64,000 nt of DNA from Lachnospiraceae bacterium (GTDB taxonomy: Bacteria; Bacillota; Clostridia; Lachnospirales; Lachnospiraceae). Every line of letters begins with the position of its first letter. Within the stretch, counting starts at the first letter, position 1. A model generated the notes under the pieces. That model was not told the DNA's origin. It saw only the letters and a program-made list of their open reading frames with translations, and did no database searches. The stretch covers positions 2,477 to 66,476 of the forward strand of contig JAFRSH010000027.1 of the NCBI GenBank assembly GCA_017427685.1. Reading direction: 5' to 3'. Positions 44,381-61,954 of the stretch are shown here, piece after piece. The position numbers and the translations under genes were made by a program.

Positions 44381-44401
44381 TAAGTTAACATCAAACACTT
44401 G

Positions 44402-44430
44402 GGCTCCGCGAGTTTCGCGGGGCCTTTTTT
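44402..44430 (+). terminator. Intrinsic terminator of rpsO
   Basis: GGCTCCGCG-agttt-CGCGGGGCC followed by TTTTTT. Confidence 0.8.
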
Positions 44431-44600: not shown

Positions 44601-44966
44601 ATGCGAGAATCAGGCGAAATGTATCTTGAAACGATACTTGTGCTTTCAAAAGAGAAGGCGACAGTCAGGTCTATCGACGTGGCTGATCATATGAATTTCT
44701 CTAAACCCTCGGTGAGCAGGGCTGTCAACCGACTCAAGGACGACGGCTACCTTAACATGTCACCCGAAGGATTCCTTACACTTACAGACAAGGGACTTGA
44801 CGTTGCGAAGACTATCTACGAGCGTCATGTCGTTCTTACCAAGATCCTGGTAAAGCTCGGAGTCGATGAGCAGATCGCTGCGGAAGACGCATGCAAGATC
44901 GAGCACGACATCAGCCCCGAGACATTTGCGGCGTTGAAGAAGACAGCAGCCGGTTATATCGATTGA
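44601..44966 (+). CDS. DtxR/MntR-family metal-dependent transcriptional regulator (short form)
   Basis: MYLETILVL...VRSIDVADHMNFSKPSVSRAVNRLKDDGYL. Winged HTH plus dimerisation helix. Confidence 0.8.
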   Translation: MRESGEMYLETILVLSKEKATVRSIDVADHMNFSKPSVSRAVNRLKDDGYLNMSPEGFLTLTDKGLDVAKTIYERHVVLTKILVKLGVDEQIAAEDACKIEHDISPETFAALKKTAAGYID

Positions 44967-44985
44967 TCCCGAAAGGAAGCTTGCT

Positions 44986-45864
44986 TTGAAGTCCACAGGT
45001 TTGAACGTATTCTGTTCGTGCTCTTCGGATGCGCAACCATCTAAGAGCAGCAGAGAACTTATCACAGCAGCCGGTCACATGCCGGTTGAGGGCGATGCCC
45101 GCACCCTGCTCGGTGCGGACGCTCTTTTTATCTGTGTCTGCGGCAAGGAGAACAGGCGTGTCAAGGAAGACCTCAATCTCGCGCTCGACAAGGGTCTCCC
45201 GGTCGCGTACATCCTCGAAGAGGGCGGTACGCTTGACTCCGGTCTGAGTATCCAGCTCGCGATCGCGGCGAAGGTGGACGGGGCGAACCCGGCGAACGAC
45301 CTGACCGCATGGCTTAAGGGCGTGAGCGAGAGCGTATCGGCCGGACAAAAGAAGAGCAGGATCAAGCTGGCAGTGATCCTAACCGCAGTGTTACTGCTTG
45401 TTGCAGGCGGAGTGATAGCGGCTCTGACGCTTATGAACCAAGATACGGGTACCGCAGCAGAGTCGGCACTTTCGGAAGTCGAAAGACTCGGGATAGATGT
45501 GGAAGCACTCAAAAAGAGCGAGAAGATAGATCTCGCGGGACTCGGACTCACGGATATCTCGTTCCTCGCGGATTGCACCGCGTGCAAGGAGCTTGATATC
45601 AGCGACAATTCCATAAGCGACATCGGCGTGCTCATGGGACTTAAGGAGCTGAGCGTCCTGAAGGCGGATAACAACAGGATCGTTGACATAAGCGTTCTGA
45701 GCAGCACCACGGGGCTCTTGGTACTGAGCGTTCGGGGCAACAGGGTCAAGGACATCAACGTCCTGCTCGCGCTCACGCAGCTGAGGGAAGCGGACATCCG
45801 CGACAACCCGATAGAGGATTACACGGCAATGAATTTCCTGACCGGAGTGAACATACAGAGTTAA
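44986..45864 (+). CDS. Single-pass membrane protein: TIR-like cytoplasmic N-domain, TM helix, extracytoplasmic internalin-type LRRs
   Basis: TTG start after GAAAGGAAG. N-domain strands NVFCSCSS / ALFICVCGK / PVAYILEE parallel the clear TIR in the next gene. QKKSR, then TM IKLAVILTAVLLLVAGGVIAALTLM. About four 22-aa repeats follow (LTDISFLADCTACKELDISDNSISDIGVLMGLKELSVLKADNNRIVDISVL...). The LRR call is solid; the TIR-like call is tentative. Confidence 0.6.
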   Translation: MKSTGLNVFCSCSSDAQPSKSSRELITAAGHMPVEGDARTLLGADALFICVCGKENRRVKEDLNLALDKGLPVAYILEEGGTLDSGLSIQLAIAAKVDGANPANDLTAWLKGVSESVSAGQKKSRIKLAVILTAVLLLVAGGVIAALTLMNQDTGTAAESALSEVERLGIDVEALKKSEKIDLAGLGLTDISFLADCTACKELDISDNSISDIGVLMGLKELSVLKADNNRIVDISVLSSTTGLLVLSVRGNRVKDINVLLALTQLREADIRDNPIEDYTAMNFLTGVNIQS

Positions 45865-45878
45865 AGAAAGGAAGGATT

Positions 45879-48104
45879 ATGAGCGAGAAGCCTACCGCGT
45901 ACAAAGGAGACGAAAAGTACATTTTTGTAAGCTACGCCCACAAGGACAGCGCTGACGTGATGCCTCTCATCGAGGCTCTGCAGAGCGCTTCATACCGCGT
46001 GTGGTATGACGAGGGGATCGAACCCGGCAACGACTGGGCAGGCGTGATCGGTAACAACCTTGAGAAGGCTGCAATCGTGCTTTTCTGCGCGTCCAAGACA
46101 TCGGTCAAGCGTGACAACGTGCTGCGCGAGATCGCATTTGCCGGAGAACATGATGTGCCCGTCCTCACGGTGACGATCGGAAACGTTGCGTTCCCGGCCG
46201 AGCTCGAGAGGATGCTCATGGTCAATCAGACCGTTTCGCTCAGGACTTTTAAGACATACGGCGATTTCGTGAATGCGATCTCAGGCGTGCTGAAGAAGGC
46301 CGGGACCTACGCAGGAGCAGCAGAGGGCAGCTCCGTAACGGAAGTTAAGGAAGCTTCCGCTGTGGCTACGGGCGGGGCACTCGATAAGAAGATCATGCTT
46401 GGAAGCAGGATGAAGCGTAACAAGCTGATCCTCAGACTGCTCATCGTACTCGCTGTTCTGGCGGCACTTGCGGCAGCGACCTTCTTCGTGGCTTTCAAGG
46501 ATGTACCCGACGTTATCGACATGGATGCGGACGAGGCGCGCGCACTGATCGAAGAAGCCGGTTTTGATTGTGATATCAGTAACGATTACTCTGATACATA
46601 TCCGTTCGGAAAGGTATTCGCGCAGAGCAGGAGCGGTATGAACTTCCGCTTTGTGCCCGTCCTTATCAGGCAGAGCCTCGGACCCGAGGAGAACCTGACG
46701 GATGTTCCGGACACTGTAACGCACCATATAAGCGAAGCGGCGTCGATGCTGATCACCGCCGGCATGAAGAAGTTTGAGATCTCACCCGTGCTCGGTACGG
46801 GCAGAGAGAACGCGCATGTCGATGCGCAGAGCATCCCTGCGGGACTCAGGGTTTCGAGAAACAACGTGATAGACCTTGATGTGGCAACGGACGGCGGCGA
46901 AATCATCTTTGAGATCGCGGGCAAGTACTACGTGATCCGCGGTACGCAGCCTGTAGTTGTCGATGCGGACGATACGAGCAATCTTGAGGAAGTGAAGCCC
47001 GCGGAGGATCCGAACCCGGCTCCCGACAGGAGCACGACCCCTGATGATACCACAGGCTCAATTTCGGGCGGTGATGTCGCAGCGGTCACAGAGGATGAAG
47101 GCGCGGCAGAAGAAGATACGGCCGATACAGAAGATACAGCAGACGCAGGCGATGAAACACCCGAGGGACGGGACGTTGCAGGCGTGACAGATGCTGAAGC
47201 GGAAGAACCTGAAGTCGAAGAAGTACCCGAGCCTACACCTGTTCCGGCACCTACGGCTACGCCTGTTCCCGAACCCACACCGGTACCTACACCGACGCCG
47301 GCACCCACAGCGACACCCGTTCCCACGGCGACGCCTGTTCCCACGGCAACACCTTCGCCCACACCCACACCGAAGCCTACAGCGACACCCACTCCGACTC
47401 CGGAAACGGCGAAGTACAACAGCCTCGGCGGGAACAAGTGGGAGGTTTATAATCAGGCGGCCATGCAGGAGATCCATGATATGCCCATGACTGCAGAGGA
47501 AGCCCGGTCGTACGGTGACGAATGGTTCGAAGGAGAGCACGCCAACGACACATACAGCACTAACATGAAGATCATGGATGACTTTACGATCAACACGGAT
47601 CTGGGAGGGCTTTGGACTGTCGAAGTTCCTTCGGGAAGGACGCTCACCATTGGTAAGGGCGGAAGGCTTCAGGCATGTGTGACGGTACAGAAGGGCGCCA
47701 AGATCGTGGTTGAATCGGGTGGCAAGCTCTGGTGTACGCAGGGCGGCGAGGAGTGCATCATGAACTACGGCACCGTCGATGTCAAATCGGGCGGCCAGAT
47801 CCAGAGTATGTTCGGAGGAACCTTCAACAACCTTTCGGGCGCGACACTCAACCTGAACGGAACCTTTAACTGCGGATCCGTTATGCATAACGTGACTCCC
47901 GACGGCTCGATGGCCCGTGCTGTATGGTTCGTGAACAAGGGAACCGTTAAGGGCAGTGGAAAAGCAACTATCTTCGGAGCTTTCCTCGGAAATTATACCG
48001 ATGAGGAGATAGATGAATTCTTTAACTGGGCTGAGGAACAGCTCGCTGAAAGGCTCGGAAACAGCAGTATCACGACGAGTCAGAACAGGGATTATGATCC
48101 GTAA
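45879..48104 (+). CDS. TIR-domain membrane protein with PASTA-like repeats, Pro/Thr linker and a C-terminal beta-rich module
   Basis: TIR_2-type N-terminus KYIFVSYAHKDSADVMPLIEALQSASYRVWYDE...IVLFCASKTSVKRDNVLREIAFA. KRNK, then TM LILRLLIVLAVLAALAAATFFVAF. Two PASTA-like units (VPDVIDMDADEARALIEEAGF..., VPDTVTHHISEAASMLITAGM...). A (T/P)-rich linker. The C-terminal ~200 aa resemble the end of ORF 52184..56305. Confidence 0.8.
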   Translation: MSEKPTAYKGDEKYIFVSYAHKDSADVMPLIEALQSASYRVWYDEGIEPGNDWAGVIGNNLEKAAIVLFCASKTSVKRDNVLREIAFAGEHDVPVLTVTIGNVAFPAELERMLMVNQTVSLRTFKTYGDFVNAISGVLKKAGTYAGAAEGSSVTEVKEASAVATGGALDKKIMLGSRMKRNKLILRLLIVLAVLAALAAATFFVAFKDVPDVIDMDADEARALIEEAGFDCDISNDYSDTYPFGKVFAQSRSGMNFRFVPVLIRQSLGPEENLTDVPDTVTHHISEAASMLITAGMKKFEISPVLGTGRENAHVDAQSIPAGLRVSRNNVIDLDVATDGGEIIFEIAGKYYVIRGTQPVVVDADDTSNLEEVKPAEDPNPAPDRSTTPDDTTGSISGGDVAAVTEDEGAAEEDTADTEDTADAGDETPEGRDVAGVTDAEAEEPEVEEVPEPTPVPAPTATPVPEPTPVPTPTPAPTATPVPTATPVPTATPSPTPTPKPTATPTPTPETAKYNSLGGNKWEVYNQAAMQEIHDMPMTAEEARSYGDEWFEGEHANDTYSTNMKIMDDFTINTDLGGLWTVEVPSGRTLTIGKGGRLQACVTVQKGAKIVVESGGKLWCTQGGEECIMNYGTVDVKSGGQIQSMFGGTFNNLSGATLNLNGTFNCGSVMHNVTPDGSMARAVWFVNKGTVKGSGKATIFGAFLGNYTDEEIDEFFNWAEEQLAERLGNSSITTSQNRDYDP

Positions 48105-48136
48105 TATAATACGATGTTTATAAAGAAAGGGTACAA

Positions 48137-49030
48137 ATGATGAGAAGAAGAACAATCGTTTTTTCGATTTTGGTTGGTATAATGGCTGCATGCCTGCTTA
48201 TGGGATGCAAATCAGGGACAAAGCTTGAAAACATAGCCTTTGATAAAGAAAAGAACAGTTACACATGTGAGTATGATGGCTTAAAACGAGAGTTTATCGT
48301 AAGTCTGCCCGAGACGGCGAAGAATGCTCCGCTTGTTGTCATGCTTCACGGGTCCGGGGATGCCGCAGACAACTTCAGACAAACCTCTGAGTTCGACAAA
48401 GATGCGAATGAAAAGGGCTATGCTGTCTGCTTTATCAACGGAACGGTCAATGTTAAGGCCGGAAGAAACTCATGCAGTTGGAACTACGGAAGGATCGAAC
48501 CCGATAATGATGACGTATCGTTTATAAAAGAAGTGGTAAAGTACGTCTGCGATGAGTACTCGCTCGACGATGATGATGTTTACTGCGCGGGATTCTCGAA
48601 CGGAGGCTACATGAACTTCAGACTTGCACTCGAGGCCCAGGACGTCTTCAAGGGCTGTGTCAGTGTCGGAGGAGATCTCTGCAAGACCCTTTGGAACAAA
48701 AAGCCCGAAAAGAATGATGTGAGTCTCATGGCTGTATACGGCGAAAAGGACGAGATAGTTCCGAAGAACCTTGACGGATCGGCAAAGAGCGCACTCGATC
48801 CGGCGATAGAAGATGTGCTTGAGTATCTCGCATCGTCAAACGGACTCGCCAAGCAATCGGAGGGCGAGATCGGAAGCGGTTCGACCATATATAAATACGG
48901 TGCGGACGGAGACAGCGATGCCATTTGGGGTGTGCTTGTAAAGGACGGCAAGCACGGATGGCCGACGCAGGAGTCTAATGGTTTCAGTGTGAATCAGTTG
49001 ATACTTGAGTTCTTTTCAAGCATCAAGTGA
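48137..49030 (+). CDS. Lipoprotein esterase, PHB-depolymerase/feruloyl-esterase (COG3509-like) family
   Basis: Lipobox LLMGC, VVMLHGSGD, nucleophile elbow GFSNGG. Confidence 0.75.
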   Translation: MMRRRTIVFSILVGIMAACLLMGCKSGTKLENIAFDKEKNSYTCEYDGLKREFIVSLPETAKNAPLVVMLHGSGDAADNFRQTSEFDKDANEKGYAVCFINGTVNVKAGRNSCSWNYGRIEPDNDDVSFIKEVVKYVCDEYSLDDDDVYCAGFSNGGYMNFRLALEAQDVFKGCVSVGGDLCKTLWNKKPEKNDVSLMAVYGEKDEIVPKNLDGSAKSALDPAIEDVLEYLASSNGLAKQSEGEIGSGSTIYKYGADGDSDAIWGVLVKDGKHGWPTQESNGFSVNQLILEFFSSIK

Positions 49031-49085
49031 TCCCAAAACGCTGTCGTCTAATTGTTTTTTGGAAAACACACGGGCGCGGAAAAGC
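49031..49085 (+). repeat. Family B repeat, partial (copy B3; the left outer arm overlaps or is replaced by the esterase 3' end)
   Basis: TCCCAAAACGCTGTCGTCTAATTGTTTTTTGGAAAACACACGGGCGCGGAAAAGC matches the inner stem and right arm of B1 and B4. Confidence 0.65.
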
Positions 49086-49124
49086 TTGTGAACGTTTAGG
49101 AAGAGTAGAGAAAAGCAGAGGATT

Positions 49125-50765
49125 ATGGTTAAGGATGCGATAAAAACACAATATATTCCTCTTGTTCTGGGAGTTACGGGACACAGGGACATCACTCCTG
49201 ATGACGCCAGACTCGCCCGGGATGTCGTTAGATACGAGATCAAGAGGCTCGCAGCACTTGCTCCCGACACTCCCTTGGAGTTGCTCTCGAGCCTTGCGGC
49301 GGGAGCGGACAGGATCGTAGCTGAGGTGGCTCTTGAAGAAGGGATCCCTCTCACTGTCATCCTCCCAATGAAGTCGGAGCTTTATGAGGAAGACTTTACC
49401 CCCGAAGAGGTTACAGAGTACAGGGAGCTTCTCTCGGGCGCATCAAACGTCTTCGTTGCGCCCGAGATCGAGGATCACAAAGAAGGTCGCGACTTCCTCT
49501 ACCGTCAGGCCGGGATTTACGTAGCGACACATTCACATGTGCTCATAGCGCTCTGGGACGGTTCGGAGCCGAAACGCGGGGGATGCGGAACCGCTGAGAC
49601 GGTGGACATCAAGCTTAAGGGAAGCCTCGAACTCAGCAAGGCACCGGGCTTTTCGCCCGAGAAGGGGTTCGTGATACATATCCCCGTAAGAAGAGGTGGA
49701 GTGGAACCTTTCCCCGAAAGGACCATCACACCGAACTATCTCGGCGATGAGAAGACTTTTAACAGAGTTATCGAACGAACTGAAGAGTTTAACAGGAGCG
49801 CCCTGAAGCTCGCCGCGAAGGGAGAAATCGCATCGCAGGCTTCACTCGCCGGGTCGGAGCATGAGACCGGGAACGAACGCGCTTTCGAGCGTATGTCGAG
49901 GGTCGGATGCGCAGCGGATCTCAGCAGTGTGAAGGGAGCCAAGAGACACAGGATCACAGTCGGACTGATCGCCGTGATGGCGACGCTCCTTACGATGTCG
50001 TTCCTTCTTTATGACGAAGCAAACATTCATTACCTGATCGTCGGCTGTGGCGTGATGATCGTGGGTATATACGTTCTGAACCTGCTTGCCCGGAAGCGTG
50101 ACTTCCATCGCAAGTATCTTGAGTACAGACTGCTTGCGGAGGCGCTTCGTGTTCAGAGTGCACTGATCGAGGCAGGTGTTTATGCCGAGACCTTCGAGAT
50201 GCTCTCGTGGGCACAGAAGCTCGAGACACCGTGGATCAGCCGTGCACTGGCGGCTATCTGCATCTACGATCCCGATTCGCTCACGCTGACCGGTGCGACC
50301 GACAACTGGATCAACGGACAGCTCTCGTATCAGAGGAGAGCCGTGGAACGCGCCAAGGCTCAGTCGAAAGCGAACGACAGGATAGTGCACGTCGCTGTCG
50401 CGATCACTGTAGCGGTGTACATGGCGGCACTCGTGTTCGAGATCTTCTGGGCAGGAACTTTCGGAGGAAGCGCGAAGCTGGGTGAAGTCGATGCCGAGTT
50501 CGTGAGGACCATCTTCAAACTCGCCACCGGATCGCTTTCAGCGATCTCGCTCTTCGCAGGAAGCTACTACGGCAAGCTCTCGCTTGATCAGTGGGCACAC
50601 GATTCCGAGAGAATGGTGCTGCTTTATGAGGAAGCGAACGCAGCCAAGGAGAACTGCCGTGACCTCGGAAAGCTCTGTGTGAGCCTCGCGAGGGAGGAGC
50701 TGTCGGAGAATATGCGGTGGTACGCGTACCAGAGCGTAAACAGTCCCGACGCGCCTATCAGTTGA
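49125..50765 (+). CDS. SLOG-like (LOG/DprA-type Rossmann) domain fused to two SLATT-like 2TM modules
   Basis: LVLGVTGHRD, LAAGADRIVAEVALEEGIP and RGGCGTAETV. Two TM hairpins, each followed by an amphipathic helix (HRKYLEYRLLAEALRVQ; LDQWAHDSERMVLLYEEA). Confidence 0.6.
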   Translation: MVKDAIKTQYIPLVLGVTGHRDITPDDARLARDVVRYEIKRLAALAPDTPLELLSSLAAGADRIVAEVALEEGIPLTVILPMKSELYEEDFTPEEVTEYRELLSGASNVFVAPEIEDHKEGRDFLYRQAGIYVATHSHVLIALWDGSEPKRGGCGTAETVDIKLKGSLELSKAPGFSPEKGFVIHIPVRRGGVEPFPERTITPNYLGDEKTFNRVIERTEEFNRSALKLAAKGEIASQASLAGSEHETGNERAFERMSRVGCAADLSSVKGAKRHRITVGLIAVMATLLTMSFLLYDEANIHYLIVGCGVMIVGIYVLNLLARKRDFHRKYLEYRLLAEALRVQSALIEAGVYAETFEMLSWAQKLETPWISRALAAICIYDPDSLTLTGATDNWINGQLSYQRRAVERAKAQSKANDRIVHVAVAITVAVYMAALVFEIFWAGTFGGSAKLGEVDAEFVRTIFKLATGSLSAISLFAGSYYGKLSLDQWAHDSERMVLLYEEANAAKENCRDLGKLCVSLAREELSENMRWYAYQSVNSPDAPIS

Positions 50766-50850
50766 AGGGCGCTAAAGAATTGGTTGGATTTTTATAAAAA
50801 TATAGTTATATTTATTGCTTTTCGAACCCCAAATAGAATCAATTGACACA

Positions 50851-50892
50851 CGCGCCTCAATACAACAGTACGTTGAGGCGCGATCCTTTTTT
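50851..50892 (+). terminator. Intrinsic terminator after the SLOG-SLATT-like gene
   Basis: CGCGCCTCAA-12 nt-TTGAGGCGCG followed by ATCCTTTTTT. Confidence 0.75.
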
Positions 50893-50985
50893 CTACTTTA
50901 TTTTTACTTGTAGAAAGCAAATTCAACTGATAGAATCAAGGCAGATACGCAGCCCGGGGAGAGACTCGGGGAAAGGGGAAAAGGA

Positions 50986-51876
50986 ATGAAGAAAATAATT
51001 TATTTAACGCTTATGCTGATCGGGCTTATGGCTGCCTGCATTCTTACGGGATGTTCGTCGTCGGGGCCCAAGCTTGAGAATGTTGAGCTTGATAAGGGTA
51101 ACAAGTACAATTGCACGTTTGAGGATGTTAAGCATGATTTCGTAATCAGCCTTCCCGAGCAGACCAAGAACGCACCTCTCATCGTGATGCTTCACGGAGC
51201 TTCGGATTCTGCTGAGAACTTCAGACTCACGAGCCGTTTTGATGAAGATGCGCTTCCTAAGGGTTACGCAGTTTGCTACGCAACCGGAACCGTTAATGTG
51301 AAGGCCGGAAGAAGTGAGAAGAGCTGGAACTACGGAAGAATGGATCCTGATTACAATGATGTAGGATTTATCAAGGCGCTCGTTAACTACCTTGTTGATG
51401 AGTACTCACTCGACGAAGACCGCGTGTTCTGCGCAGGCTTCTCGAATGGAGGATTCATGAACTTCAGACTCGCGCTTGAGGCACAGGATACATTCCAGGC
51501 ATGCGTGAGCGTCGGTGGAGATCTTTGCAAGACACTTTGGAACAAGAAACCTGAAAAGAACGATGTCGGAATGCTTGCTATCATCGGAGAGATCGATGAG
51601 TCCGTTCCGAAGAACTTCGACGGAACAGCAAAGACTGCTCTTGATCCCGCTATTGAGGATGTACTTGATTACATGGCTTCATCAAACGGCCTTGAGCTTC
51701 AGTCCGAAGCTGAGATCGGAGAAGGTTCGACGATCCGCAAGTATGGTGCTGACGGCGATGAGGACATGGTTTGGGGCGTAGTAGTAAAGGGAGCTAAGCA
51801 TGGATGGCCGACGGAGGAGCTTAACAAGATCAGTGCGAATAAACTCATCCTTGATTTCTTCGAGAATTGGAAATAG
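50986..51876 (+). CDS. Lipoprotein esterase, paralog of 48137..49030
   Basis: Lipobox ILTGC, IVMLHGASD, GFSNGG. Collinear with the first esterase; most positions are identical by eye. Confidence 0.75.
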   Translation: MKKIIYLTLMLIGLMAACILTGCSSSGPKLENVELDKGNKYNCTFEDVKHDFVISLPEQTKNAPLIVMLHGASDSAENFRLTSRFDEDALPKGYAVCYATGTVNVKAGRSEKSWNYGRMDPDYNDVGFIKALVNYLVDEYSLDEDRVFCAGFSNGGFMNFRLALEAQDTFQACVSVGGDLCKTLWNKKPEKNDVGMLAIIGEIDESVPKNFDGTAKTALDPAIEDVLDYMASSNGLELQSEAEIGEGSTIRKYGADGDEDMVWGVVVKGAKHGWPTEELNKISANKLILDFFENWK

Positions 51877-52018
51877 AGTTTCTGAATAATTGAATAGTCA
51901 ACGATCAATTCATCTGCTCGTTCAATCCTCACTCCGGTGATCAATATGTCTATGCATATGCATATGCAAAAAGCGTTTCTTGTTTGGATCACATACAAAG
52001 TGCTCTTTACGTTTAGCA

Positions 52019-52047
52019 TTGCATTTCTTTCGAAATATGGGTAAAAT
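52019..52047 (+). promoter_or_regulatory. Candidate promoter of the 1373-aa secreted-protein gene
   Basis: TTGCAT, 17-nt spacer, TAAAAT. Leaves a leader of about 130 nt containing three short hairpins. Confidence 0.45.
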
Positions 52048-52183
52048 ACATACCATGTATGCGTATAAGAGCCTACTACTTCGTTGAAGTGTATGGCCTA
52101 ACGGCCCTGATCATTCCCTTCGGGAATTGAAGGGGCGAGGAAACGCAGTCGGTAGAAAACCGACGGCAAAGAGGAGGTTTTAA

Positions 52184-55100
52184 ATGAAAAGGATTGCTAC
52201 CAGGTTAGTCGTGTTGTTTGCGATCGTTGCTCTGGTGTTCGGAACACTTCCCGCCGGCAGTGCGGAAGCAGCTTCGAAGAAGAGCAAGAAGAAGACGATC
52301 GTCGTTACGACACAGGAAGAACTTGTTGCTGCTCTCAAGAAGTACGGTTCTTCAAATTCAAAGGTTAAGATCAAGATCGAGACTACCGAGGCAAGTACCT
52401 TCACACTCAGTGCGAAGTACAGCTCGGACAGTATTCAGATCGTTGTTGACGCGCCCAATGCCACCATCAAGAGTAAGGCTAAGGTGTCGAGTATTACTAT
52501 TAATGAGGCGAAGTCTGTTAAGGAGTACGCTTCGGGCAACAAGATCACCGTTAATGATGAGAAGCTGACATTCACAGCTATGGAGAATGCGTCGGTTGAG
52601 AAGCTGACGATCGCTTCCGAGACGGGTACCGTCAAGGTCGTTAACAACGGTGGTATCGAGAAGGTTTCCGTTAAGACCGAAGTTAAGGTTGACCTGACAC
52701 AGAACGGTGAAATGGGACGTGTTTACGTCGCTGCGGCTGCTGATATCAGCGTCAGCGGAACTTCTGAAGAGAGTCTTAAAGTTACGGTTCAGAAGGAAGC
52801 TGTCGGAGCGTCGGTTAAGGCTGAAGTTCCGGTTAGCGTTAACGCTTATGCAGACGTTGATCTGACCCTCGAAAAAGGTGCCGAGAACTCCAAGGTCACA
52901 ATGAAGGAAGAGACGGCAGGCGTTAAGCTTGAGAACAATACGGAAGAAACCGTTTCCGTAAAGGATACCGAAGGAAATACCCAGAAGGTTGAGACAGGTG
53001 AGGACCTCACAACAGACAACTTCGTCGGCAAGCCTGATGAGCCCGAAACAACCGAAGGCACAGTAACAGAGCAGCCTAAGGAAGAGGAGCAGAAGGAAGA
53101 AGAAAAGAAAGACGACACAACCAATACCGGCTCGGACAATAACGAAACGGACAATAATCAGGGGAATACAGATCCCGGTAACAACCAGGGCAACACAGAT
53201 CCCGGCTATACAAGCGTGCCCGGTCCTACCGCTACGGAATTGTTTATAAAAGAACTCACGACTGCAGCTGAGACGGCTGCACAGAACGGCTACAGTCAGC
53301 TTGTGCCTGTAAAGAGAACAACCGATCTTACACTTACCGAGGATATCGTCATTCCTACAGGTGTACAGTTGTTTATCGGATACGAAAACAGTAGTGCAAC
53401 ACTTGACGCAGATTCATATGGAATCAAGCTTTCGGAGAATTCACAGATAATCGTATCGTCCCAGAGTAAGCTTAATGTTGAGGAACAGAAAATAGTCTAC
53501 TCTCCCGAAGATAAGGTTCGCCACACAGAGGCTTGGCTTGTTGTTGAACCGGGTGCAGAGTTTAACTTCGGTGCTTACAGGTTTATCGCTGACGGAGATC
53601 AGGGCGTTACCGATCCTCATTATCATATTTGCGCTATCCGCTATGCGTGCGGTGAGGATTGGCATTGGAGTCAAGACGCAGATCGTAATGTCAGGTTCTT
53701 TAATAATTCCGTTTCTGTTCAGAACAATGGCGGTACCGTAACGATCACCGGTGAAGGCGCAGGCTTAAGCGAGCTTCCCGCTGCTTTCGGTGTTGGCAGC
53801 TATATCCTGAATATTCCAAATACCGATTGGGCTGATTTCGAAAATGCCCGTAACGCAGTACCTGAGGACGGAGTGTTCTCTTATCTTGAGTTCACAAACG
53901 GGGACAACCTCAGTTGCAACAAGTTCGTGACCAAGTTTGGAAATGAAGCGATTTATGAATACGTGAACTCTGACGTTGACTGGCTTAATGCATACCTTGA
54001 TCCGAACAGAGCAAACGAGATATCCGATGCAGAGAAAGCAGGAAAGTACTCGACTATATCTGTTGAGAAATCTGATGTGGGCAGGATCAGGACTGTCACT
54101 ATACCTTCGGGCAACTCAAACGGCGCAGCGATAACGATTACCGGCGAGCTTCGTATTCCTGTGGGTTCAAAGCTTATTGCAAATAAGCCGCTTGACATGA
54201 AAGAGTACGGCGCAGTCCTCAAGATCATGGGAACCTTTGAATCGCAAGCAAATTATTATCATGGTCTTGGCGTTTGCAGCTCGGTGATTGGTAATACAAG
54301 CAAAGAAAGGGCAGGAGTTCCTCATCTTCTCGTAGAGATGTGCGGCCCTCAGGCAAGACTGATTTTAAAAGAAAGCAGTGAGTACAGAGAGTATTTCTTT
54401 AAATACTCATTTGAAGATGGCAGACAGGTTGATCTTACAAAGATCGATCCCGAACAGCAGGGCCTGGCGATCGAAACATGGAGAGACGAGGTAGACGGGA
54501 ACACCTATATAAAATCAATATGGGAATACATCTATATCCCCGAGGATACCACCAAAGGAACACCTCACTGGATGGTTTACAGGAAAACAAAGGGTGCTGC
54601 CGATACAACCGGTGTAGAGGTTGTAAATCATCCTTTCAAAGACAATTTCATATCGCTTGAAGATCTTCGGAAGGGAATAAATATAGGAGTTATAGATAAC
54701 AGGCATGAGCTTGTGAGATTTCTTGACTGGTCAAGCAGTGTTGCATGGTTGTATGTCAACGAGAATTGGAACAACTTGACCGGAATCAGAGAAGTAGCAG
54801 ATGATAATAACAATAAGTATGTCGACTTTAGCGGAATAGCTGCGAATGCTTTTGATGGTATTGAAAACTATGCTAACATCGGGTGGCATAAGTTTTCAAC
54901 AAATACACAACAGTATCTTACATTGCCTGCAAGAAAGTCGTCGGACGGAAACAATATTCCTTGGGAATTGAGCGCCGTTGAGCTTAAGCTAAGCGATTAC
55001 ACTGCAAGCGAACTTTGTTCGATGAGACTCAGGCAGGAAGCTTCTCTTAAAGTGAGCATGGGCGGAACACTTGTGGTTGACTCTGTAATGGCTGCCTCAA

Positions 55101-56305
55101 AGGATAACAATTATTTATATACGAAGGCACTTGTGCTCGATTATGATGAGAATGCAACGCAACAGCAAAACAAGGGTGCCCGTATCGATGTATGTCTCGG
55201 TGGTGCGCTTCAGATTGGTGACATCAAGGTTTCTGTTCCCGACAACTGCACCGGCGATTGGAAAGCAGGCCAACCCGGAATCTCACTCTCTGCTGAATAT
55301 GATAATAACAGGACTACAGATTCCCAGAATGGTGTTTATAAGTATTATTTAAGACTTCAGGTACCCCAGTGCGCTAAGTTCACCAAGGTCGATAATGGAA
55401 CTGAAACCATTCCCACAGCTGCAGAGATCAATGCATGGTTACTCGCGAACAATATCTCGATCGATTTTATCGATCCCAGCAAGCTTAATGGTGAGGAATA
55501 CTTTGTAGTAACAGGCGATCCTGACAGAGCATGGATCCTGAAACGCGCAGCGGGTGGATTGGCAAATAACAGTATTGAGGAATTAATAGCTCCTAAAAAG
55601 GACAGTGATGGATACTATGAAATAAAGGAAAGTGAACATCTCCGCGCTCTTTACATGTGCAAGGGAGACGGATCGGGGTCGGAAAGGATCAAGGTGCGGA
55701 TCAATCCGGATAATGCGGACAATGAGCTTATCCTTAACTCAAAGCTGGAGACCATGTGGGATGTTGAAATCGTTTCCGGCAAGAAGCTCACCGTAAACCC
55801 TGGATCTGTACTCGAGGCAGCGGTTACTGTCGCTTCATGCGCAGCTATTGATATTCAGGTCAGCGGAAGCGAATATGGTGAACTTCGCACCACCCAGGGC
55901 GGAAACATCACCGTAAAAGCCGGCGGAACAATCAATGTATATGACGGTACTCATGGTAATGGAAACAGCGGTGAAGGAAAAGCCAAGCTTGTTTCTCAAA
56001 AGGGTGGAAGAGTAATTGTTGAAGCCGGTGGTACACTTGAAATCTATGGTACCTTTGAGTGTGGCGGATATAAAAGTGCCGATGTAGTAACGCCTGAGGT
56101 TTGGTTTGCAAACAACGGAACAGTTAATAACTACGGAAGCATTATCGTAACGATCTTTATTGCGAAATCGTCAACTAGTCAAAGCCTGACCGTAAACGAA
56201 GTGAATGGTATAGCGTTTGATATAAGAAATAAAGGCACTTACAAAGGTGATGGCGTAATCGATATCAAGTACGTAAGTGAAATAGCGTTGACAAATCATT
56301 CGTAA
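52184..56305 (+). CDS. Very large secreted protein of unknown function (beta-rich repeats; C-terminal module shared with the TIR protein)
   Basis: Strong RBS. Signal peptide LVVLFAIVALVFGTLPAGSAEA. Lys/Glu/Asn-rich linker with a duplicated NNQGNTDPG. C-terminal W.VE..SG..LT / GTFxCG / VWFxNxGTV pattern matches 45879..48104. Confidence 0.7.
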   Translation: MKRIATRLVVLFAIVALVFGTLPAGSAEAASKKSKKKTIVVTTQEELVAALKKYGSSNSKVKIKIETTEASTFTLSAKYSSDSIQIVVDAPNATIKSKAKVSSITINEAKSVKEYASGNKITVNDEKLTFTAMENASVEKLTIASETGTVKVVNNGGIEKVSVKTEVKVDLTQNGEMGRVYVAAAADISVSGTSEESLKVTVQKEAVGASVKAEVPVSVNAYADVDLTLEKGAENSKVTMKEETAGVKLENNTEETVSVKDTEGNTQKVETGEDLTTDNFVGKPDEPETTEGTVTEQPKEEEQKEEEKKDDTTNTGSDNNETDNNQGNTDPGNNQGNTDPGYTSVPGPTATELFIKELTTAAETAAQNGYSQLVPVKRTTDLTLTEDIVIPTGVQLFIGYENSSATLDADSYGIKLSENSQIIVSSQSKLNVEEQKIVYSPEDKVRHTEAWLVVEPGAEFNFGAYRFIADGDQGVTDPHYHICAIRYACGEDWHWSQDADRNVRFFNNSVSVQNNGGTVTITGEGAGLSELPAAFGVGSYILNIPNTDWADFENARNAVPEDGVFSYLEFTNGDNLSCNKFVTKFGNEAIYEYVNSDVDWLNAYLDPNRANEISDAEKAGKYSTISVEKSDVGRIRTVTIPSGNSNGAAITITGELRIPVGSKLIANKPLDMKEYGAVLKIMGTFESQANYYHGLGVCSSVIGNTSKERAGVPHLLVEMCGPQARLILKESSEYREYFFKYSFEDGRQVDLTKIDPEQQGLAIETWRDEVDGNTYIKSIWEYIYIPEDTTKGTPHWMVYRKTKGAADTTGVEVVNHPFKDNFISLEDLRKGINIGVIDNRHELVRFLDWSSSVAWLYVNENWNNLTGIREVADDNNNKYVDFSGIAANAFDGIENYANIGWHKFSTNTQQYLTLPARKSSDGNNIPWELSAVELKLSDYTASELCSMRLRQEASLKVSMGGTLVVDSVMAASKDNNYLYTKALVLDYDENATQQQNKGARIDVCLGGALQIGDIKVSVPDNCTGDWKAGQPGISLSAEYDNNRTTDSQNGVYKYYLRLQVPQCAKFTKVDNGTETIPTAAEINAWLLANNISIDFIDPSKLNGEEYFVVTGDPDRAWILKRAAGGLANNSIEELIAPKKDSDGYYEIKESEHLRALYMCKGDGSGSERIKVRINPDNADNELILNSKLETMWDVEIVSGKKLTVNPGSVLEAAVTVASCAAIDIQVSGSEYGELRTTQGGNITVKAGGTINVYDGTHGNGNSGEGKAKLVSQKGGRVIVEAGGTLEIYGTFECGGYKSADVVTPEVWFANNGTVNNYGSIIVTIFIAKSSTSQSLTVNEVNGIAFDIRNKGTYKGDGVIDIKYVSEIALTNHS

Positions 56306-56345
56306 AGTAGCTGCGACGTGGCAGTCACAGCGATTGCAGTAAACC

Positions 56346-56383
56346 AACAGGAACCCTCCGCGGAGGGTTCCTGTTGTTATTTA
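56346..56383 (+). terminator. Intrinsic terminator
   Basis: AACAGGAACCCTCCG|CGGAGGGTTCCTGTT perfect palindrome followed by GTTATTTAATTT. Confidence 0.8.
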
Positions 56384-56489
56384 ATTTGACATCTCTGACA
56401 ACTTTTTCTTTATTTAACGAACAAGACATGCTATAATAGCAAACGGTAGGGACGATGTTGCGTTTTGAAAAGTGGGAGATGATCAAATC

Positions 56490-58283
56490 ATGAACAATAC
56501 ATCTACTGTTGCAAAATCACGAAGGTATATCGGTCTGATTTCGGTATATCTTGGTTGCATTCTTATAAACATTCTTTTCAGCAGGCTTTGTGGGCTCCTC
56601 GAGATCCCTCTGTTCCTTGACTGCATCGGAACTCTTCTTGCTGCGATCTGCGGAGGCTTCCTGCCGGGTATCATCGTCGGGTACGTGACGAACCTGATCA
56701 ACTCGGTCTTCAATCCGCCCACCGCCTACTACGCAGTGATAAGCGTGCTGATCGCGCTTTCCGCATCGGCCCTGGCTTACAAAGGTTTCTATAAGAAGTT
56801 TTACAAATCGCTTGTTTCAATCCCGGTCTTTACTTTTTTGGGTGGCTTTTTGGGATCGCTTCTTACTTATCTCCTTTACGGCTTCGGAATGGGAGAAGGG
56901 ATCTCGGCGCCCTTTGCGCAGAAGCTGCTTGCAAACGGGACCTTGAGTGTTTTCTCGGCGCAGCTGATCTCTGATGTTGCGATCGACATCATCGACAAGA
57001 CCGTTACGGTTCTTATAGTCTATGCTCTGTTAAAGCTCATACCGGAGAAAATCCGGGATTCGATAGCGCTCACCTCATGGCAGCAGAGACCCCTTGACAG
57101 GGATGAGATCAGAGCTTCCCACAACATGGACGTAGCGCGCAGAAAGCTCAGCAGCAGGATCATCATGATCGTCGGTTCTGTCATGTGCTTTGTGGCGGTA
57201 ACGACGTGCATCATTAGCTACGTGATATATGATCAGTTTGCACAGGATCACTTCGCGGTCATGGGCTCGGTTGCCGACGTGTCTGCCGAAGCGGCGCCCG
57301 TGGACGGAGTGATGTTCATCACGAGGCTGGCCTCGCTCTTTATCGGTTTCTTCATTGTGGTACTTGTGTTCTGCCTGTGGCACATGAAGTACCACATGAC
57401 CTATCCGATCAATTCCATGACCTTCGCTGCAAGGCAATTTGCCTATAACAGCGAGGAAGAGCTTGAGACGGGACTGAGGAGTCTGGCAGACCTTAAGATC
57501 TCAACGGGAGACGAGATAGAGAAGCTCTACGAGGCTGTACTTAAGACCATGGGTGATACTGTCGGCTATCTTGAGGATGTTCGTGTAAAAGGAGAGCAGA
57601 TCTCCAGGATGCAGAACGGTCTGATCTACATCCTCGCCGACCTGGTTGAGAGCCGCGACAAGTGCACGGGCGACCATGTCAAGAAGACAGCGGCCTATGT
57701 GAGGCTGATCCTCGAGCTCCTGCGCGACAGCGGAGAGTATGGCGGCGTGGTTACGGACGAGTACATCGAAGATGTGTGCAACTGTGCGCCTCTTCACGAC
57801 ATCGGCAAGATCAAGGTTTCCGACCTTATCCTCAACAAGCCCGCCCGTCTGAATGACGAGGAGTTCCTTGAGATGCAGAAACACACGACAGCCGGAAAGA
57901 AGATCATCGAGAGCGCCATGGAGCTTACGGGCGGTTCTTCGGGATACCTTAAAGAGGCGCTTAACCTTGCCACCTATCACCATGAGAAGTGGGACGGCTC
58001 GGGTTATCCGGAGGGCCTGAAGGGTGAGGAGATACCTCTTTCCGCAAGGATCATGGCTGTTTCGGATGTATATGACGCGCTTCTTTCGGATCGAAGCTAC
58101 AAGAAGGCTTTCTCACACGAGGAAGCAATGAGGATACTCAAAGAGGGCTCCGGCAAGCATTTCGATCCTGTCATCGTGAGACTGTTCTCGGAAAACGAGG
58201 ACAAGGTCAGGAAGATAGAGGAAGAAAACAGAAAGCTGATCAACAGTGAAAAAACAGAAAACGATTATATGAGAGCGGTGTGA
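56490..58283 (+). CDS. HD-GYP domain c-di-GMP phosphodiesterase with a multi-pass membrane N-terminal region
   Basis: At least six hydrophobic helices, then HDIGKIKV and HHEKWDGSGYPEGL. An upstream in-frame GTG at 56472 is possible. Confidence 0.8.
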   Translation: MNNTSTVAKSRRYIGLISVYLGCILINILFSRLCGLLEIPLFLDCIGTLLAAICGGFLPGIIVGYVTNLINSVFNPPTAYYAVISVLIALSASALAYKGFYKKFYKSLVSIPVFTFLGGFLGSLLTYLLYGFGMGEGISAPFAQKLLANGTLSVFSAQLISDVAIDIIDKTVTVLIVYALLKLIPEKIRDSIALTSWQQRPLDRDEIRASHNMDVARRKLSSRIIMIVGSVMCFVAVTTCIISYVIYDQFAQDHFAVMGSVADVSAEAAPVDGVMFITRLASLFIGFFIVVLVFCLWHMKYHMTYPINSMTFAARQFAYNSEEELETGLRSLADLKISTGDEIEKLYEAVLKTMGDTVGYLEDVRVKGEQISRMQNGLIYILADLVESRDKCTGDHVKKTAAYVRLILELLRDSGEYGGVVTDEYIEDVCNCAPLHDIGKIKVSDLILNKPARLNDEEFLEMQKHTTAGKKIIESAMELTGGSSGYLKEALNLATYHHEKWDGSGYPEGLKGEEIPLSARIMAVSDVYDALLSDRSYKKAFSHEEAMRILKEGSGKHFDPVIVRLFSENEDKVRKIEEENRKLINSEKTENDYMRAV

Positions 58284-58533
58284 GAAGCATTGCTCTTTTT
58301 TTTTTGCGCAGGAGAAAGTCCTGTCGGGTCGTGGATTTAGGTCTGCACATATAATCGAAACAAACGCAAAGGGGAATTTTTAACCTTTAATTCACAAAAC
58401 GCAAAGCCGCCACGGATGTAATTTCGAATCTCAAGATTATGAATAAAATTTCACAAAAACATAGTGACAAAACTCCGAACATATAGTATTATTTTGTTTA
58501 GGGTATTAAAAAGCAATCTTAAGGAGGCTATTC

Positions 58534-60672: not shown

Positions 60673-60708
60673 GCAATTATCTCCGAAATGAATTGATTTA
60701 GGATTGTG

Positions 60709-60795
60709 CTTACGGCTCCTCCTGCCACGTAGTCTTTCCGGAAAACGGCTTCGCCTTTAATTGTTTTCCGAAAAGACCACGGGCGCGGAGGAGCC
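60709..60795 (+). repeat. Family B repeat (copy B4)
   Basis: CTTACGGCTCCTCCTGCCACG-TAGTCTTTCCGGAAAAC...GTTTTCCGAAAAGACCA-CGGGCGCGGAGGAGCC. Confidence 0.8.
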
Positions 60796-60880
60796 TTTTG
60801 TGATAAGAAGAAGTGATTTTTGTTTTGGATACGCAGTGGTATAATGTCTTTGAATACACTTAGAGTAATTTAGAAAAGGG

Positions 60881-61948: not shown

Positions 61949-61954
61949 AGAAAA

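Follow-up and report, generated by a model that had tools for sequence, protein, structure and literature searches.

The locus raises two questions: what a 546-residue protein, encoded between two esterase genes and downstream of TIR-type genes, does in the company of those TIR genes, and whether its gene arrived there as an insertion. An earlier reading of the sequence alone took the protein for a SLOG-like sensor fused to two SLATT-like two-transmembrane (2TM) modules. Coordinates refer to the window, that is, the whole analysed stretch of 64,000 nucleotides, in which the following features are relevant.

44601–44966, + strand: DtxR/MntR-family regulator, first in the gene string and 19 nt ahead of the next gene (Fe_dep_repress, E = 1.8e-14)
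44986–45864, + strand: degenerate TIR-like domain (aa 1 to ~105), TM segment (128–146) and extracellular LRRs (LRR_4, E = 2.8e-11; hhalign; hydropathy)
45879–48104, + strand: cytoplasmic TIR domain (aa 1 to ~130), TM segment (187–205), two PASTA domains, PT-rich linker and C-terminal ectodomain (Pfam, hydropathy)
48137–49030, + strand: esterase est1, a lipoprotein of the PHB-depolymerase family and paralog of est2, between the TIR-PASTA and SLOG-SLATT genes
49125–50765, + strand: membrane protein of 546 aa with SLOG domain, SLATT-like 2TM module and second 2TM/helical C-terminal module (ORF, homologs, AlphaFold model)
49125–49814, + strand: predicted cytoplasmic SLOG domain, YpsA/DprA-like, aa 1 to ~230 (Foldseek, Pfam, invariant columns)
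49938–50171, + strand: predicted SLATT-like module, aa 272–349, comprising TM1 (277–295), invariant FLLYDE turn, TM2 (304–322) and amphipathic helix HRKYLEYRLLAEALRVQ (Pfam, NCBIfam, hydropathy)
50298–50762, + strand: second 2TM hairpin (TM3, 420–438; amphipathic TM4, ~459–481) and C-terminal cytoplasmic helices 484–538, family-specific (model helices)
50851–50892, + strand: intrinsic-terminator-like hairpin with a 10-bp GC-rich stem, then T6, closing the transcription unit (direct sequence reading, folding)
50986–51876, + strand: esterase est2, resident downstream of the SLOG-SLATT gene in the window's clade (identity to relatives' esterases)

A large family of SLOG-SLATT membrane proteins

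The open reading frame at 49125–50765 is real, and every motif that had been quoted from it is present. At least 400 full-length homologs were found, far beyond chance, and the family comprises 2,085 clusters at 50% identity (E ≤ 1e-30) spread over more than 548 species genomes. The family is thus large and uncharacterised; its members are currently annotated as hypothetical or DUF4231 proteins, and a literature search found no publication on any of them. Both the protein and the family profile, used as queries against PDB sequences, returned chance-level matches only (Cas3-HD, E = 1.4; KtrA, E = 0.018 over 39 residues), and no relatives were found on viral contigs. PADLOC gave no match for the window protein alone and called no system at the locus; across the family it gave weak domain-level matches to ShosA (16 of 36 members) and a CBASS 2TM effector (5 of 36), and also to PsyrA and 2TM/4TM effectors.

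The AlphaFold model of the protein (pLDDT 87.9, pTM 0.87) consists of an N-terminal alpha/beta domain followed by helices. Hydropathy analysis identifies three strongly hydrophobic segments (aa 277–295, 304–322 and 420–438), to which model and hydropathy together add a fourth, weaker amphipathic segment at ~459–481, giving two hairpins in total. The protein is a four-TM protein with its N terminus inside.

The SLOG domain

The N-terminal domain of the model is a three-layer alpha/beta Rossmannoid fold that Foldseek superimposes on YpsA, DprA and LOG. The best match in the PDB is YpsA (2nx2, E = 5.9e-5, TMt 0.60), and the structures matched with a probability of ~0.9 or higher (2nx2, 5mll, 3uqz, 8zva, 7uxs, 1wek, 1rcu and 5wq3) include YpsA, DprA, ShosA, the SLOG domain of ThsA (7uxs) and LOG. 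Viral structures in BFVD matched with E down to 3e-7 are cpYpsA-related SLOG, DUF2493 and DprA-like proteins. At the level of Pfam profiles, YAcAr matches 25 of 36 family members (best 3.5e-5), DprA 8 and YpsA 2; the window protein reaches 12.6 bits against YAcAr (cut-off 28.2), and its own SLOG and SLATT profile matches all lie below curated cut-offs. These results bear out the proposed N-terminal SLOG domain, and the modelled fold places aa 1 to ~230 in the SLOG superfamily, nearest to YpsA and DprA.

Residues G16, G19, H20, D62, E116, R127, Q128, W144, G146, C154 and G155 of this domain are invariant in the family; the polar ones among them (H20, D62, E116, R127 and Q128) could equally mark a catalytic site. 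A Gly-rich, GGxGT-type nucleotide-binding loop is present as RGGCGTAETV, in which C154 and G155 never vary and T156 reaches a conservation of at least 90%. The catalytic Glu of the LOG signature PGGxGTxxE is not conserved (the family pattern is GCGT[A/S/N/D][E/A/S/T]), the residue after GCGT-x being E, A, S, T or D among 36 members, and LOG structures are weak Foldseek matches (E 0.14–0.5). Because the position of the LOG catalytic Glu is variable, a sensor is favoured over a LOG-type enzyme.

The membrane half

The claim of two SLATT-like modules is supported for the first hairpin and not for the second. The segment HRKYLEYRLLAEALRVQ lies right after hairpin 1, as had been stated, and in the model and hydropathy profile this hairpin has the long flanking helices (H249–299 and H327–349) of the SLATT architecture. 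DUF4231, which we take to be a member of the SLATT clan of Pfam, matches 34 of 36 family members (best 9e-8), and the NCBIfam models SLATT_3, SLATT_1 and SLATT_4 match 28 (best E = 1.4e-6), 19 and 18 of the 36, respectively, all under their 41–45-bit cut-offs. For the window protein itself the values are E = 2.8e-4 for DUF4231 (aa 272–344; 21.7 bits, cut-off 24.7) and E ~0.1 for SLATT_1 and SLATT_3. These profile matches suggest that the first hairpin is SLATT/DUF4231-like, consistently across the family though sub-threshold.

A second SLATT module was rejected: hhalign detects no resemblance between aa 388–546 and module 1 (probability 0.45%), and searches with 10 members at E ≤ 10 yielded no SLATT or consistent Pfam family for this region. 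It nevertheless contains the invariant residues E439, R461, K465, G469, E528, N529 and W532, and elsewhere in the TM half FLLYDE, R335, E339 and R342 are invariant. Foldseek found no meaningful structural match to the membrane half in the PDB or BFVD; ABC-transporter and TRPM matches were discarded for their low probability and rmsd of at least 27.

The gene string and its TIR proteins

The string follows the rpsO terminator (44401–44425) and begins with the DtxR/MntR-family regulator, whose position is conserved in related loci (L001–L004) and which possibly regulates the operon. The intergenic gaps along the string are 19, 14, 32 and 94 nt, and a terminator follows. Both the AT-rich stretch and the separate terminator that had been noted 3' of the SLOG-SLATT gene are present, the latter as a strong hairpin (50851–50882; fold of −19.2 kcal/mol, z = −5.65) with a T-run. 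The consensus terminator scan is blind to this hairpin because of its loop size; it was spotted by eye, and folding agreed.

Of the two upstream genes described as TIR-type, 45879–48104 encodes a canonical TIR, whereas 44986–45864 is only divergently TIR-like by profile–profile comparison. The 741-aa product of the former matches TIR_2 (E = 3e-15), PASTA (E = 8e-14) and ThsB_TIR (E = 0.009). Its TIR domain is 37–46% identical to TIRs beside distant SLOG-SLATT homologs (E 1e-16 to 1e-23), and at least 90% of 41 TIRs share its putative catalytic Glu, E84. This TIR-TM-PASTA protein is predicted to be both signal generator and surface sensor. The product of 44986–45864 has no Pfam TIR match; its TIR-like domain aligns with the TIR profile (hhalign 96.3%, E = 1.9e-9), is without the conserved TIR motifs, and has Leu aligned to the putative catalytic Glu. 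The gene is kept in all loci of the window's clade, and the protein is probably a non-catalytic co-receptor.

As the sequence-only reading had noted, no cyclase was found among the scanned genes (44601 to 63978). An HMM search of the window likewise gave no match to the HD-like/RyR-repeat partner described below; the downstream HD protein at 56472–58283 was considered as a stand-in and rejected, being of the membrane HD-GYP type (hhalign probability 0.13%).

Synteny of the SLOG-SLATT gene and the esterase pair

The two flanking esterases are paralogous, as had been claimed (66% aa identity between est1 and est2). The further proposal, that the SLOG-SLATT gene is an insertion splitting them, is overturned by orthologous loci. 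At 97%, 95%, 83% and 47–50% identity the gene lies in synteny, with the TIR-PASTA gene on one side and a single esterase on the other, in every case downstream of an infB-rbfA-truB-ribF-rpsO block. The single esterase corresponds to est2, which is 99% identical to that of the same-species contig L093 and 82–84% identical to those of L001, L003 and L014. At the position of est1 no esterase is present in L093 (97% nt), L013, L014, L001, L003 or L004, and the boundaries of an insertion fall at window positions 48108/49032. Since L093 and the other relatives have the SLOG-SLATT gene and lack the upstream esterase, it is est1 that is the insert; it is strain-specific and not part of the system. An est2-type esterase was not seen beside distant homologs, and est2 probably belongs to unrelated metabolism. 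The repeat fragment reported before the gene was not recovered, the only repeats found being the paralogous esterase segments themselves; around the SLOG-SLATT gene neither mobile-element genes nor flanking repeats were found, and GC content shows no discontinuity specific to it.

Neighbourhoods of homologs across genomes

Neighbourhoods were sampled at 40 GTDB homolog loci flanked by 8 kb or more on each side, and TIR genes were counted within 10 kb. TIR genes occur near the homologs at 26 of the 40 loci (65%), a gene for an HD-like/RyR-repeat protein at 30 (75%), one or the other at 34 (85%) and both at 22. These partner genes are almost always on the same strand as the SLOG-SLATT gene; among strong-TIR genes 29 of 35, and among RyR genes 44 of 50, lie upstream on that strand, and the RyR gene is at most 200 nt away in 39 of 50 loci. 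The RyR gene is common in most other lineages and missing from the window's clade, all nine loci of which carry TIR genes. In this clade the SLOG-SLATT gene is thus always accompanied by TIR genes. The outcome that the sequence-only reading had named as refuting, a core gene kept regardless of the TIR genes, does not hold.

The outer flanking genes are entirely different between distant homolog loci, indicating unrelated genomic settings, and the conservation of the inner neighbourhood in many such settings argues for the functional link to TIR genes that the sequence-only reading had drawn. In hundreds of gut and rumen Clostridia the SLOG-SLATT gene belongs to conserved operon-like strings with membrane-anchored TIR proteins. 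The wider surroundings of these loci are housekeeping or metabolic genes rather than a defence island, and about 15% of the well-flanked loci have metabolic surroundings with neither TIR nor RyR close by. Such solo copies have PTS, glycoside-hydrolase and MatE genes around them, and a check for alternative signal generators showed metabolic neighbours only. One distant operon includes a CDF transporter. Sequence divergence is much faster in the ectodomain genes than in the SLOG-SLATT gene (46% versus 95% identity to L013).

Proposed function

The conserved operons suggest a system that is related to Thoeris immunity and senses at the cell surface, not a mobile insertion. By analogy with ThsA, ThsH and TRPM2, we propose, with a probability of roughly 0.55, that the SLOG-SLATT protein, embedded in the membrane, is both receiver and effector in a second-messenger pathway based on TIR. 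The LRR and PASTA ectodomains would sense a cell-surface or cell-wall event, and the cytoplasmic TIR (E84) of the 741-aa protein would be activated, possibly via clustering with its degenerate TIR-like partner. The TIR would then convert NAD+ into an ADPR-derived messenger to be bound by the SLOG domain, and binding could make the SLATT-like and second hairpins change their conformation or oligomeric state in a way that opens or perturbs the membrane, with ion flux, depolarisation or growth arrest as the outcome. In most other lineages the soluble HD-like/RyR-repeat protein perhaps degrades or relays the signal. Whether the output is a defence of the abortive-infection type or physiological envelope signalling is roughly an even call.

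A wider and more doubtful extension of this proposal is a bacterial "Toll-like" pathway. Here LRR/PASTA-TM-TIR receptors would couple an extracellular or wall cue (candidates are phage adsorption, wall damage or muropeptides, and a host or competitor molecule) through an NAD-derived messenger to a SLOG-regulated channel, with HD-like/RyR-repeat proteins as modulators. Such a pathway would be widely distributed among gut and rumen Clostridia and kept there by vertical inheritance. It might be the prokaryotic equivalent of animal TIR/cADPR to TRPM2/RyR signalling, to which it could even be related by descent.

Alternative explanations

The SLOG domain might instead be an enzyme that acts at the membrane to make or process a nucleotide signal, for instance through cleavage of the N-glycosidic bond of an ADPR derivative, with the TM segments merely anchoring it beside the TIR receptors. 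Its invariant polar residues are unusually dense (H20 in GVTGHR, D62 in GAD, E116, R127, Q128 and D145), SLOG clades include enzymes such as LOG, and SLOG proteins are also predicted signal processors (PMC9503650, PMC6459960). However, the position of the LOG catalytic Glu varies in the family, and the nearest structures (YpsA, DprA, ShosA and ThsA SLOG) are binders, not hydrolases. Moreover, the TM half is conserved as strongly as the SLOG half (FLLYDE, R335, E339, R342, E439, R461 and K465), so that a passive anchor would be unexpected. We regard this enzymatic role as quite improbable. The idea of a recently inserted, self-contained mobile defence cassette splitting a tandem esterase pair draws on the window itself, where esterase paralogs stand on both sides and the gene has its own terminator; L093 and all other relatives, which have the gene and not the upstream esterase, together with the lack of any gene-specific GC discontinuity, mobile-element genes, flanking repeats or viral-contig relatives in our searches, leave it with hardly any probability.

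The metabolic settings bear on a further possibility, that of a housekeeping protein of envelope or ion homeostasis, such as a YpsA-like regulator of cell division or stress or a nucleotide-gated cation channel. In that case the TIR would be a scaffold for interactions that makes no messenger, and the protein would have no part in conflict. Stable synteny by infB-rbfA-truB-ribF-rpsO in relatives at 47–50% identity, the solo copies among PTS, glycoside-hydrolase and MatE genes, the DtxR/MntR regulator at the head of the operon, the CDF transporter in one distant operon and our failure to find a viral or defence-island context are all in keeping with it, and YpsA is itself a SLOG protein linked to cell division (PMC6459960). 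Conservation of the putative catalytic Glu in at least 90% of the 41 neighbouring TIRs nevertheless argues for enzymatic TIRs, the trio of TIR, SLOG and SLATT is a hallmark of nucleotide-signal conflict systems, and the divergence of the ectodomain genes (46% against 95% for the SLOG-SLATT gene) is that expected of conflict or recognition interfaces. A housekeeping role is on balance unlikely, and a TIR-coupled receiver and effector is the preferred reading.

Comparison with known systems

TIR-to-SLOG and TIR-to-SLATT signalling is documented (bioRxiv 10.64898/2025.12.03.692087; PMC9503650); in Thoeris, cytosolic TIRs sense phage proteins. What differs here is that the TIR proteins are membrane-anchored and bear extracellular LRR/PASTA domains, that the receiver is a direct fusion of SLOG with a membrane module, and that the genes are chromosomally stable, outside defence islands, in gut and rumen Clostridia of more than 548 species. 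If the proposed receiver-effector role is correct, TIR second-messenger signalling in bacteria would go beyond phage sensing inside the cell and include an outside-in, Toll-like-receptor topology, and the protein would provide a bacterial model for a membrane permeation unit gated by SLOG. A concrete functional hypothesis is now attached to a family of 2,085 clusters.

As in type I Thoeris (ThsB TIR with ThsA SIR2-SLOG), the TIR gene adjoins that of an effector with a SLOG-fold domain, and the operon layout is of the Thoeris type (TIR gene and SLOG effector on the same strand, gaps of 14–94 nt). The ThsA SLOG domain, which binds TIR-made 3'cADPR, is among the structural matches (7uxs). However, the SLOG domain here is nearer to YpsA/DprA than to the ThsA (STALD) type (E = 5.9e-5 versus 0.06), its output is a membrane module instead of SIR2, and the TIRs carry membrane anchors and LRR or PASTA ectodomains instead of being cytosolic. 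Thoeris models gave no PADLOC effector match, the window TIR matches ThsB weakly (E 0.009–0.05), and there is no defence-island context.

According to secondary accounts (van den Berg et al. 2024, via PMC13276650, bioRxiv 10.64898/2025.12.03.692087), type III Thoeris combines several TIR proteins with an SMF/DprA-type SLOG effector, to which the multiple TIR/TIR-like paralogs beside a DprA-like SLOG effector may be likened. Both effector architecture and TIR topology differ here from what those accounts describe; the window TIR matches NCBIfam ThcB4 weakly (E = 1e-5, 24.5 bits, cut-off 220), and type III effector models matched none of 36 family members. Type VII Thoeris pairs a TIR with the SLATT effector ThsH through a cADPR signal (bioRxiv 10.64898/2025.12.03.692087), and TIR-SLATT pairs are known in Firmicute phages (PMC9503650). 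These resemble the present system in coupling a TIR to a 2TM SLATT effector, thought to oligomerise and breach the membrane on signal binding. Here, by contrast, the SLATT-like hairpin is fused to a SLOG sensor and to a second, unrelated 2TM/helical module, its SLATT profile matches are sub-threshold, the TIRs carry ectodomains, and an HD-like/RyR protein is a frequent extra partner of the family.

Bacillus subtilis YpsA (2nx2), with a TMt of 0.60, remains the best structural match, and the cpYpsA-related YAcAr/DUF2493 is the recurrent Pfam match. The YpsA-like clade has been implicated in NAD/ADPR-related sensing (PMC9503650, PMC6459960), although YpsA is small, soluble and linked to cell division, with neither a membrane module nor a TIR partner.

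In animals, a SLOG-fold cytoplasmic domain of TRPM2 binds ADPR and gates the channel. The resemblance is one of analogy only, a SLOG-fold cytoplasmic domain being joined in both cases to a membrane permeation module (a putative one here); homology of the TM regions is unsupported (TRPM Foldseek matches have a probability of ~0.1 or less), and the bacterial RyR-repeat protein is soluble and is absent from the window. On the animal side the TIR protein SARM1 makes cADPR, and RyR-repeat domains occur in the channels of the pathway. The recurrent RyR-repeat partner is an unexpected parallel to animal cADPR biology: the bacterial operons unite a TIR, a SLOG-TM protein and a RyR-repeat protein in an arrangement that parallels the animal cADPR pathway.

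The SLOG-SLATT gene and its protein family

The 546-aa ORF at 49125-50765 (+) is present with all the motifs quoted in the earlier sequence-only reading, and a chance ORF is ruled out. Full-length homologs, about 500-640 aa long, number at least 400 in a word-indexed search, and nearly all come from MAGs of Lachnospiraceae, Oscillospiraceae, and other Clostridia. With E≤1e-3 as threshold, an exhaustive profile search yields 9,965 family representatives, a number that falls to 2,085 when the threshold is E≤1e-30, and a scan of species-representative genomes reveals a relative in >548 species, overwhelmingly ruminant and gut MAGs. In a 36-sequence alignment the family is conserved end to end with a mean column identity of 45%; invariant residues are G16, G19, H20, D62, E116, R127, Q128, W144, G146, C154, and G155 in the N-terminal domain, and F293-L294, Y296-D297-E298, R335, E339, R342, E439, R461, K465, and G469 in the membrane half. 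No description of the family or of its SLOG + SLATT-like + extra 2TM architecture was found; the original SLOG/SLATT paper, which lay outside the search, may mention SLOG-SLATT fusions.

The AlphaFold2 model built from this alignment is confident (pLDDT 87.9, pTM 0.87), with an alpha/beta domain extending from the N-terminus to about residue 230. The only significant Foldseek matches of the model in the PDB are SLOG-superfamily proteins: YpsA (2nx2; E=5.9e-5, TMt 0.60), DprA (5mll, 3uqz, 4ljk), ShosA (8zva), the 3'cADPR-bound SLOG domain of ThsA (7uxs), and LOG proteins (1wek, 1rcu, 5wq3). Matches in a viral structure library are cpYpsA-related SLOG, DUF2493, and DprA-like proteins. The assignment of an N-terminal SLOG domain is thus upheld by structure; sequence profiles concur, although the window protein itself scores poorly (YAcAr, E=0.12). 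Across the 36 family members, SLOG-type Pfam matches are to YAcAr (25), DprA (8), and YpsA (2), and the PADLOC ShosA model matches 16.

Long helices follow the SLOG domain in the model (residues 249-299, 303-325, 327-349, 392-443, 454-481, 484-510, and 514-538). By hydropathy, segments 277-295, 304-322, and 420-438 are strongly transmembrane and a fourth helix at about 459-481 is amphipathic, which implies an N-in, C-in topology with four membrane helices. The proposal that this half comprises two SLATT-like modules holds for the first hairpin but not for the second. The first hairpin and its trailing amphipathic helix match DUF4231 at E=2.8e-4 in the window protein; 34 of 36 members give this match, the best at 9e-8, and NCBIfam models SLATT_3, SLATT_1, and SLATT_4 match the region in 28, 19, and 18 of 36, all scores being under curated cut-offs. 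The second hairpin with its C-terminal helices resembles neither module 1 (hhalign probability 0.45%) nor any Pfam family, and the protein is therefore described as SLOG, one SLATT-like module, and a family-specific 2TM/helical module. At their outer ends, TM1 bears an invariant acidic motif FLLYDE (aa 293-298) and TM3 bears FE (aa 439), and the amphipathic fourth helix holds R461, K465, and G469; all are candidate pore-mouth or selectivity residues.

The inserted element at the locus is an esterase gene

The elements upstream of the SLOG-SLATT gene are, in order:

44401-44425, rpsO terminator
44601-44966, +, DtxR/MntR-type regulator
44986-45864, +, 292-aa TM protein with extracellular LRRs
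45879-48104, +, 741-aa TIR-TM-PASTA protein
48137-49030, +, esterase est1, directly before the SLOG-SLATT gene

Intergenic gaps from the regulator through the SLOG-SLATT gene are 19, 14, 32, and 94 nt, and the terminator proposed 3' of that gene is evident as a strong hairpin (-19.2 kcal/mol, z = -5.65) followed by a T-run.

The SLOG-SLATT gene had been taken for an insertion that splits a pair of esterase paralogs, an interpretation reversed by comparison with orthologous loci at 97% nt (L093, same species), 95% (L013), 83% (L001-L003, L014), and 47-50% (L004, L005, L015) identity. Where contigs reach, the common order is infB-rbfA-DHH-truB-ribF-rpsO-DtxR-LRR-TIR/PASTA-SLOG-SLATT gene-one esterase. 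Because these loci share its position, the SLOG-SLATT gene is resident; orthologous loci down to 47-50% identity carry it. In L093, which lacks est1, 293 nt separate the TIR-PASTA gene from the SLOG-SLATT gene; relative to L093, the window contains an additional ~920 nt (48109-49031) that carry est1, with edges at 48108 and 49032. The downstream esterase est2 (50986-51876) is orthologous to the resident esterase: identity is 99% with the L093 copy and 82-84% with copies in the 83% clade, against only 66% with est1. The inserted element is thus est1, which is strain-specific and lies in the TIR-PASTA/SLOG-SLATT intergenic region. Its nearest relative is the one esterase found downstream in the L013 lineage (78% aa, 82% nt), which suggests that est1 was acquired through recombination between lineages.

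Divergence from L013 is very uneven: identity is 95% aa for the SLOG-SLATT gene, 46% for the LRR protein, 74% and 96.5% for the N-terminal half and C-terminus of TIR-PASTA, respectively, and 53% for the 1373-aa protein (52184-56305). This unevenness indicates that the locus at 44986-56305 is a recombining mosaic in which ectodomain genes evolve fastest.

The 1373-aa protein is secreted and without a Pfam domain; its C-terminus (aa 1180-1325) is homologous to the TIR-PASTA C-terminal ectodomain (aa 567-699; 35.5% identity, E=1.6e-14), and the region common to both may be a surface or cell-wall module. Downstream, 56472-58283 encodes a membrane-anchored HD-GYP-type (HD_5) protein conserved in L001. 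The segment at 60881-63978, containing a radical-SAM gene, a 424-aa protein without a Pfam match, and an opposite-strand radical-SAM/SPASM gene, is syntenic with L004, which has a TetR gene there, and may be a peptide-modification cluster. The metal-dependent DtxR/MntR-family regulator heads the gene string across the window's whole clade, and one distant operon includes a CDF cation-efflux gene (L012 11809-12924); a tie between the system and divalent-metal status is possible.

Conserved TIR, LRR, and RyR partners

Homologs of about 40% identity occupy unrelated settings (spoVA, radC, gidAB, thioredoxin, thyA/DHFR, and ribosomal genes), where they end or follow a conserved gene string:

first, TIR-like TM protein, about 280 aa
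second, TIR-TM-LRR protein, about 390 aa
third, TM-LRR protein, about 1,250 aa
fourth, soluble protein, 575-720 aa

HMMs from the string proteins were scanned against six-frame ORFs of 80 species-representative loci, with percentages calculated on the 40 having ≥8 kb on both sides. The suspected co-occurrence with TIR genes is borne out: a TIR gene is near the homolog in 26/40 (65%) of these fully flanked loci, and over all 80 loci strong TIR genes lie upstream on the same strand in 29/35. The most frequent neighbour is the soluble partner (30/40, 75%); either gene is present in 34/40 (85%) and both in 22/40. Among the 50 of 80 loci carrying it, the soluble-partner gene is within 200 nt in 39; in 44 it shares the homolog's strand and lies upstream, and it often overlaps the homolog's start codon. 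Loci without TIR or RyR genes have metabolic neighbours only.

The soluble partner (L006 6335-8062, L009 5954-7984, L010 6284-8011, L012 9614-11782, and about 45 other loci) carries at its C-terminus a RyR repeat that matches RyR structures at E=4e-23 to 5e-25, and has an HD-like N-terminal region with invariant RDH..H, HD, DH, HN, and CDE and weak Pfam HD matches. An HMM scan did not find it in the window or its clade, and the HD-GYP-type protein at 56472-58283 is ruled out as a relative (hhalign probability 0.13%). No literature was found tying RyR repeats to TIR or SLOG, or describing this partner or the TIR-TM-LRR/PASTA coupling.

TIRs encoded in the distant operons share 37-46% identity with the window TIR domain. 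The consensus of 41 distinct neighbouring TIRs is F-SY-H...WYDEGI-G--W...N---E-..A, and ≥90% of them keep a putatively catalytic Glu, which is E84 in the window. Of the two TIR-type genes expected upstream, that of the 741-aa protein retains this Glu, whereas the 292-aa protein has a TIR-like N-terminal cytoplasmic domain (profile-profile 96.3%, E=1.9e-9) lacking both the consensus motifs and the Glu; the window therefore encodes a probably catalytic TIR alongside a degenerate TIR-like partner. In distant operons the ~280-aa proteins (L006 345-1205; equivalents in L009, L010, and others) are TM proteins of divergent TIR-like type, for which hhalign gives 99.5% against TIR, and some ~1,250-aa LRR proteins (L006 2450-6271 and equivalents) give weak N-terminal TIR matches, so that a full operon may hold genes for as many as three membrane proteins of the TIR family.

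Proposed function and relation to known systems

The SLOG fold, the SLATT-like hairpin, the extra conserved membrane module, and the stable operonic tie to membrane-anchored, ectodomain-bearing TIR proteins are established by these comparisons. The most economical interpretation, by analogy, is that LRR/PASTA ectodomains would sense a cue at the surface, the TIR would catalyse production of an NAD-derived messenger, and the SLOG domain would then switch the membrane module. Alternatively, the SLOG domain might itself be enzymatic; a LOG-type glycosidase is unlikely because, in the 36-sequence alignment, the family does not conserve the Glu that completes the catalytic PGGxGTxxE motif of LOG. 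Another alternative is a housekeeping envelope function with the TIRs as non-enzymatic scaffolds.

Evidence on defence versus physiology is split. Hallmark domains, multiple TIR paralogs, and fast-evolving ectodomains favour a conflict role, whereas core-like synteny, a DtxR-type regulator, and a location outside defence islands and viruses favour a physiological one; PADLOC recognised no system at the window locus, and no relatives of the family were found on viral contigs.

The proposed relay from surface sensing through a TIR messenger to a SLOG-switched membrane module is of interest because the TIR partners have a Toll-like-receptor topology, because the family is broad, and because the hypothesis can be tested directly. 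The system is not categorically new, because its components and the TIR-to-SLOG/SLATT logic are already known. In type I Thoeris the ThsA SLOG domain binds 3'cADPR, and in type VII the SLATT effector ThsH responds to cADPR (bioRxiv 10.64898/2025.12.03.692087); type III, as summarised in PMC13276650 and bioRxiv 10.64898/2025.12.03.692087, pairs multiple TIRs with a SLOG effector of the DprA type, and Firmicute phages encode TIR-SLATT pairs (PMC9503650). These systems are analogies for the TIR-to-SLOG/SLATT logic of the SLOG-SLATT operons.
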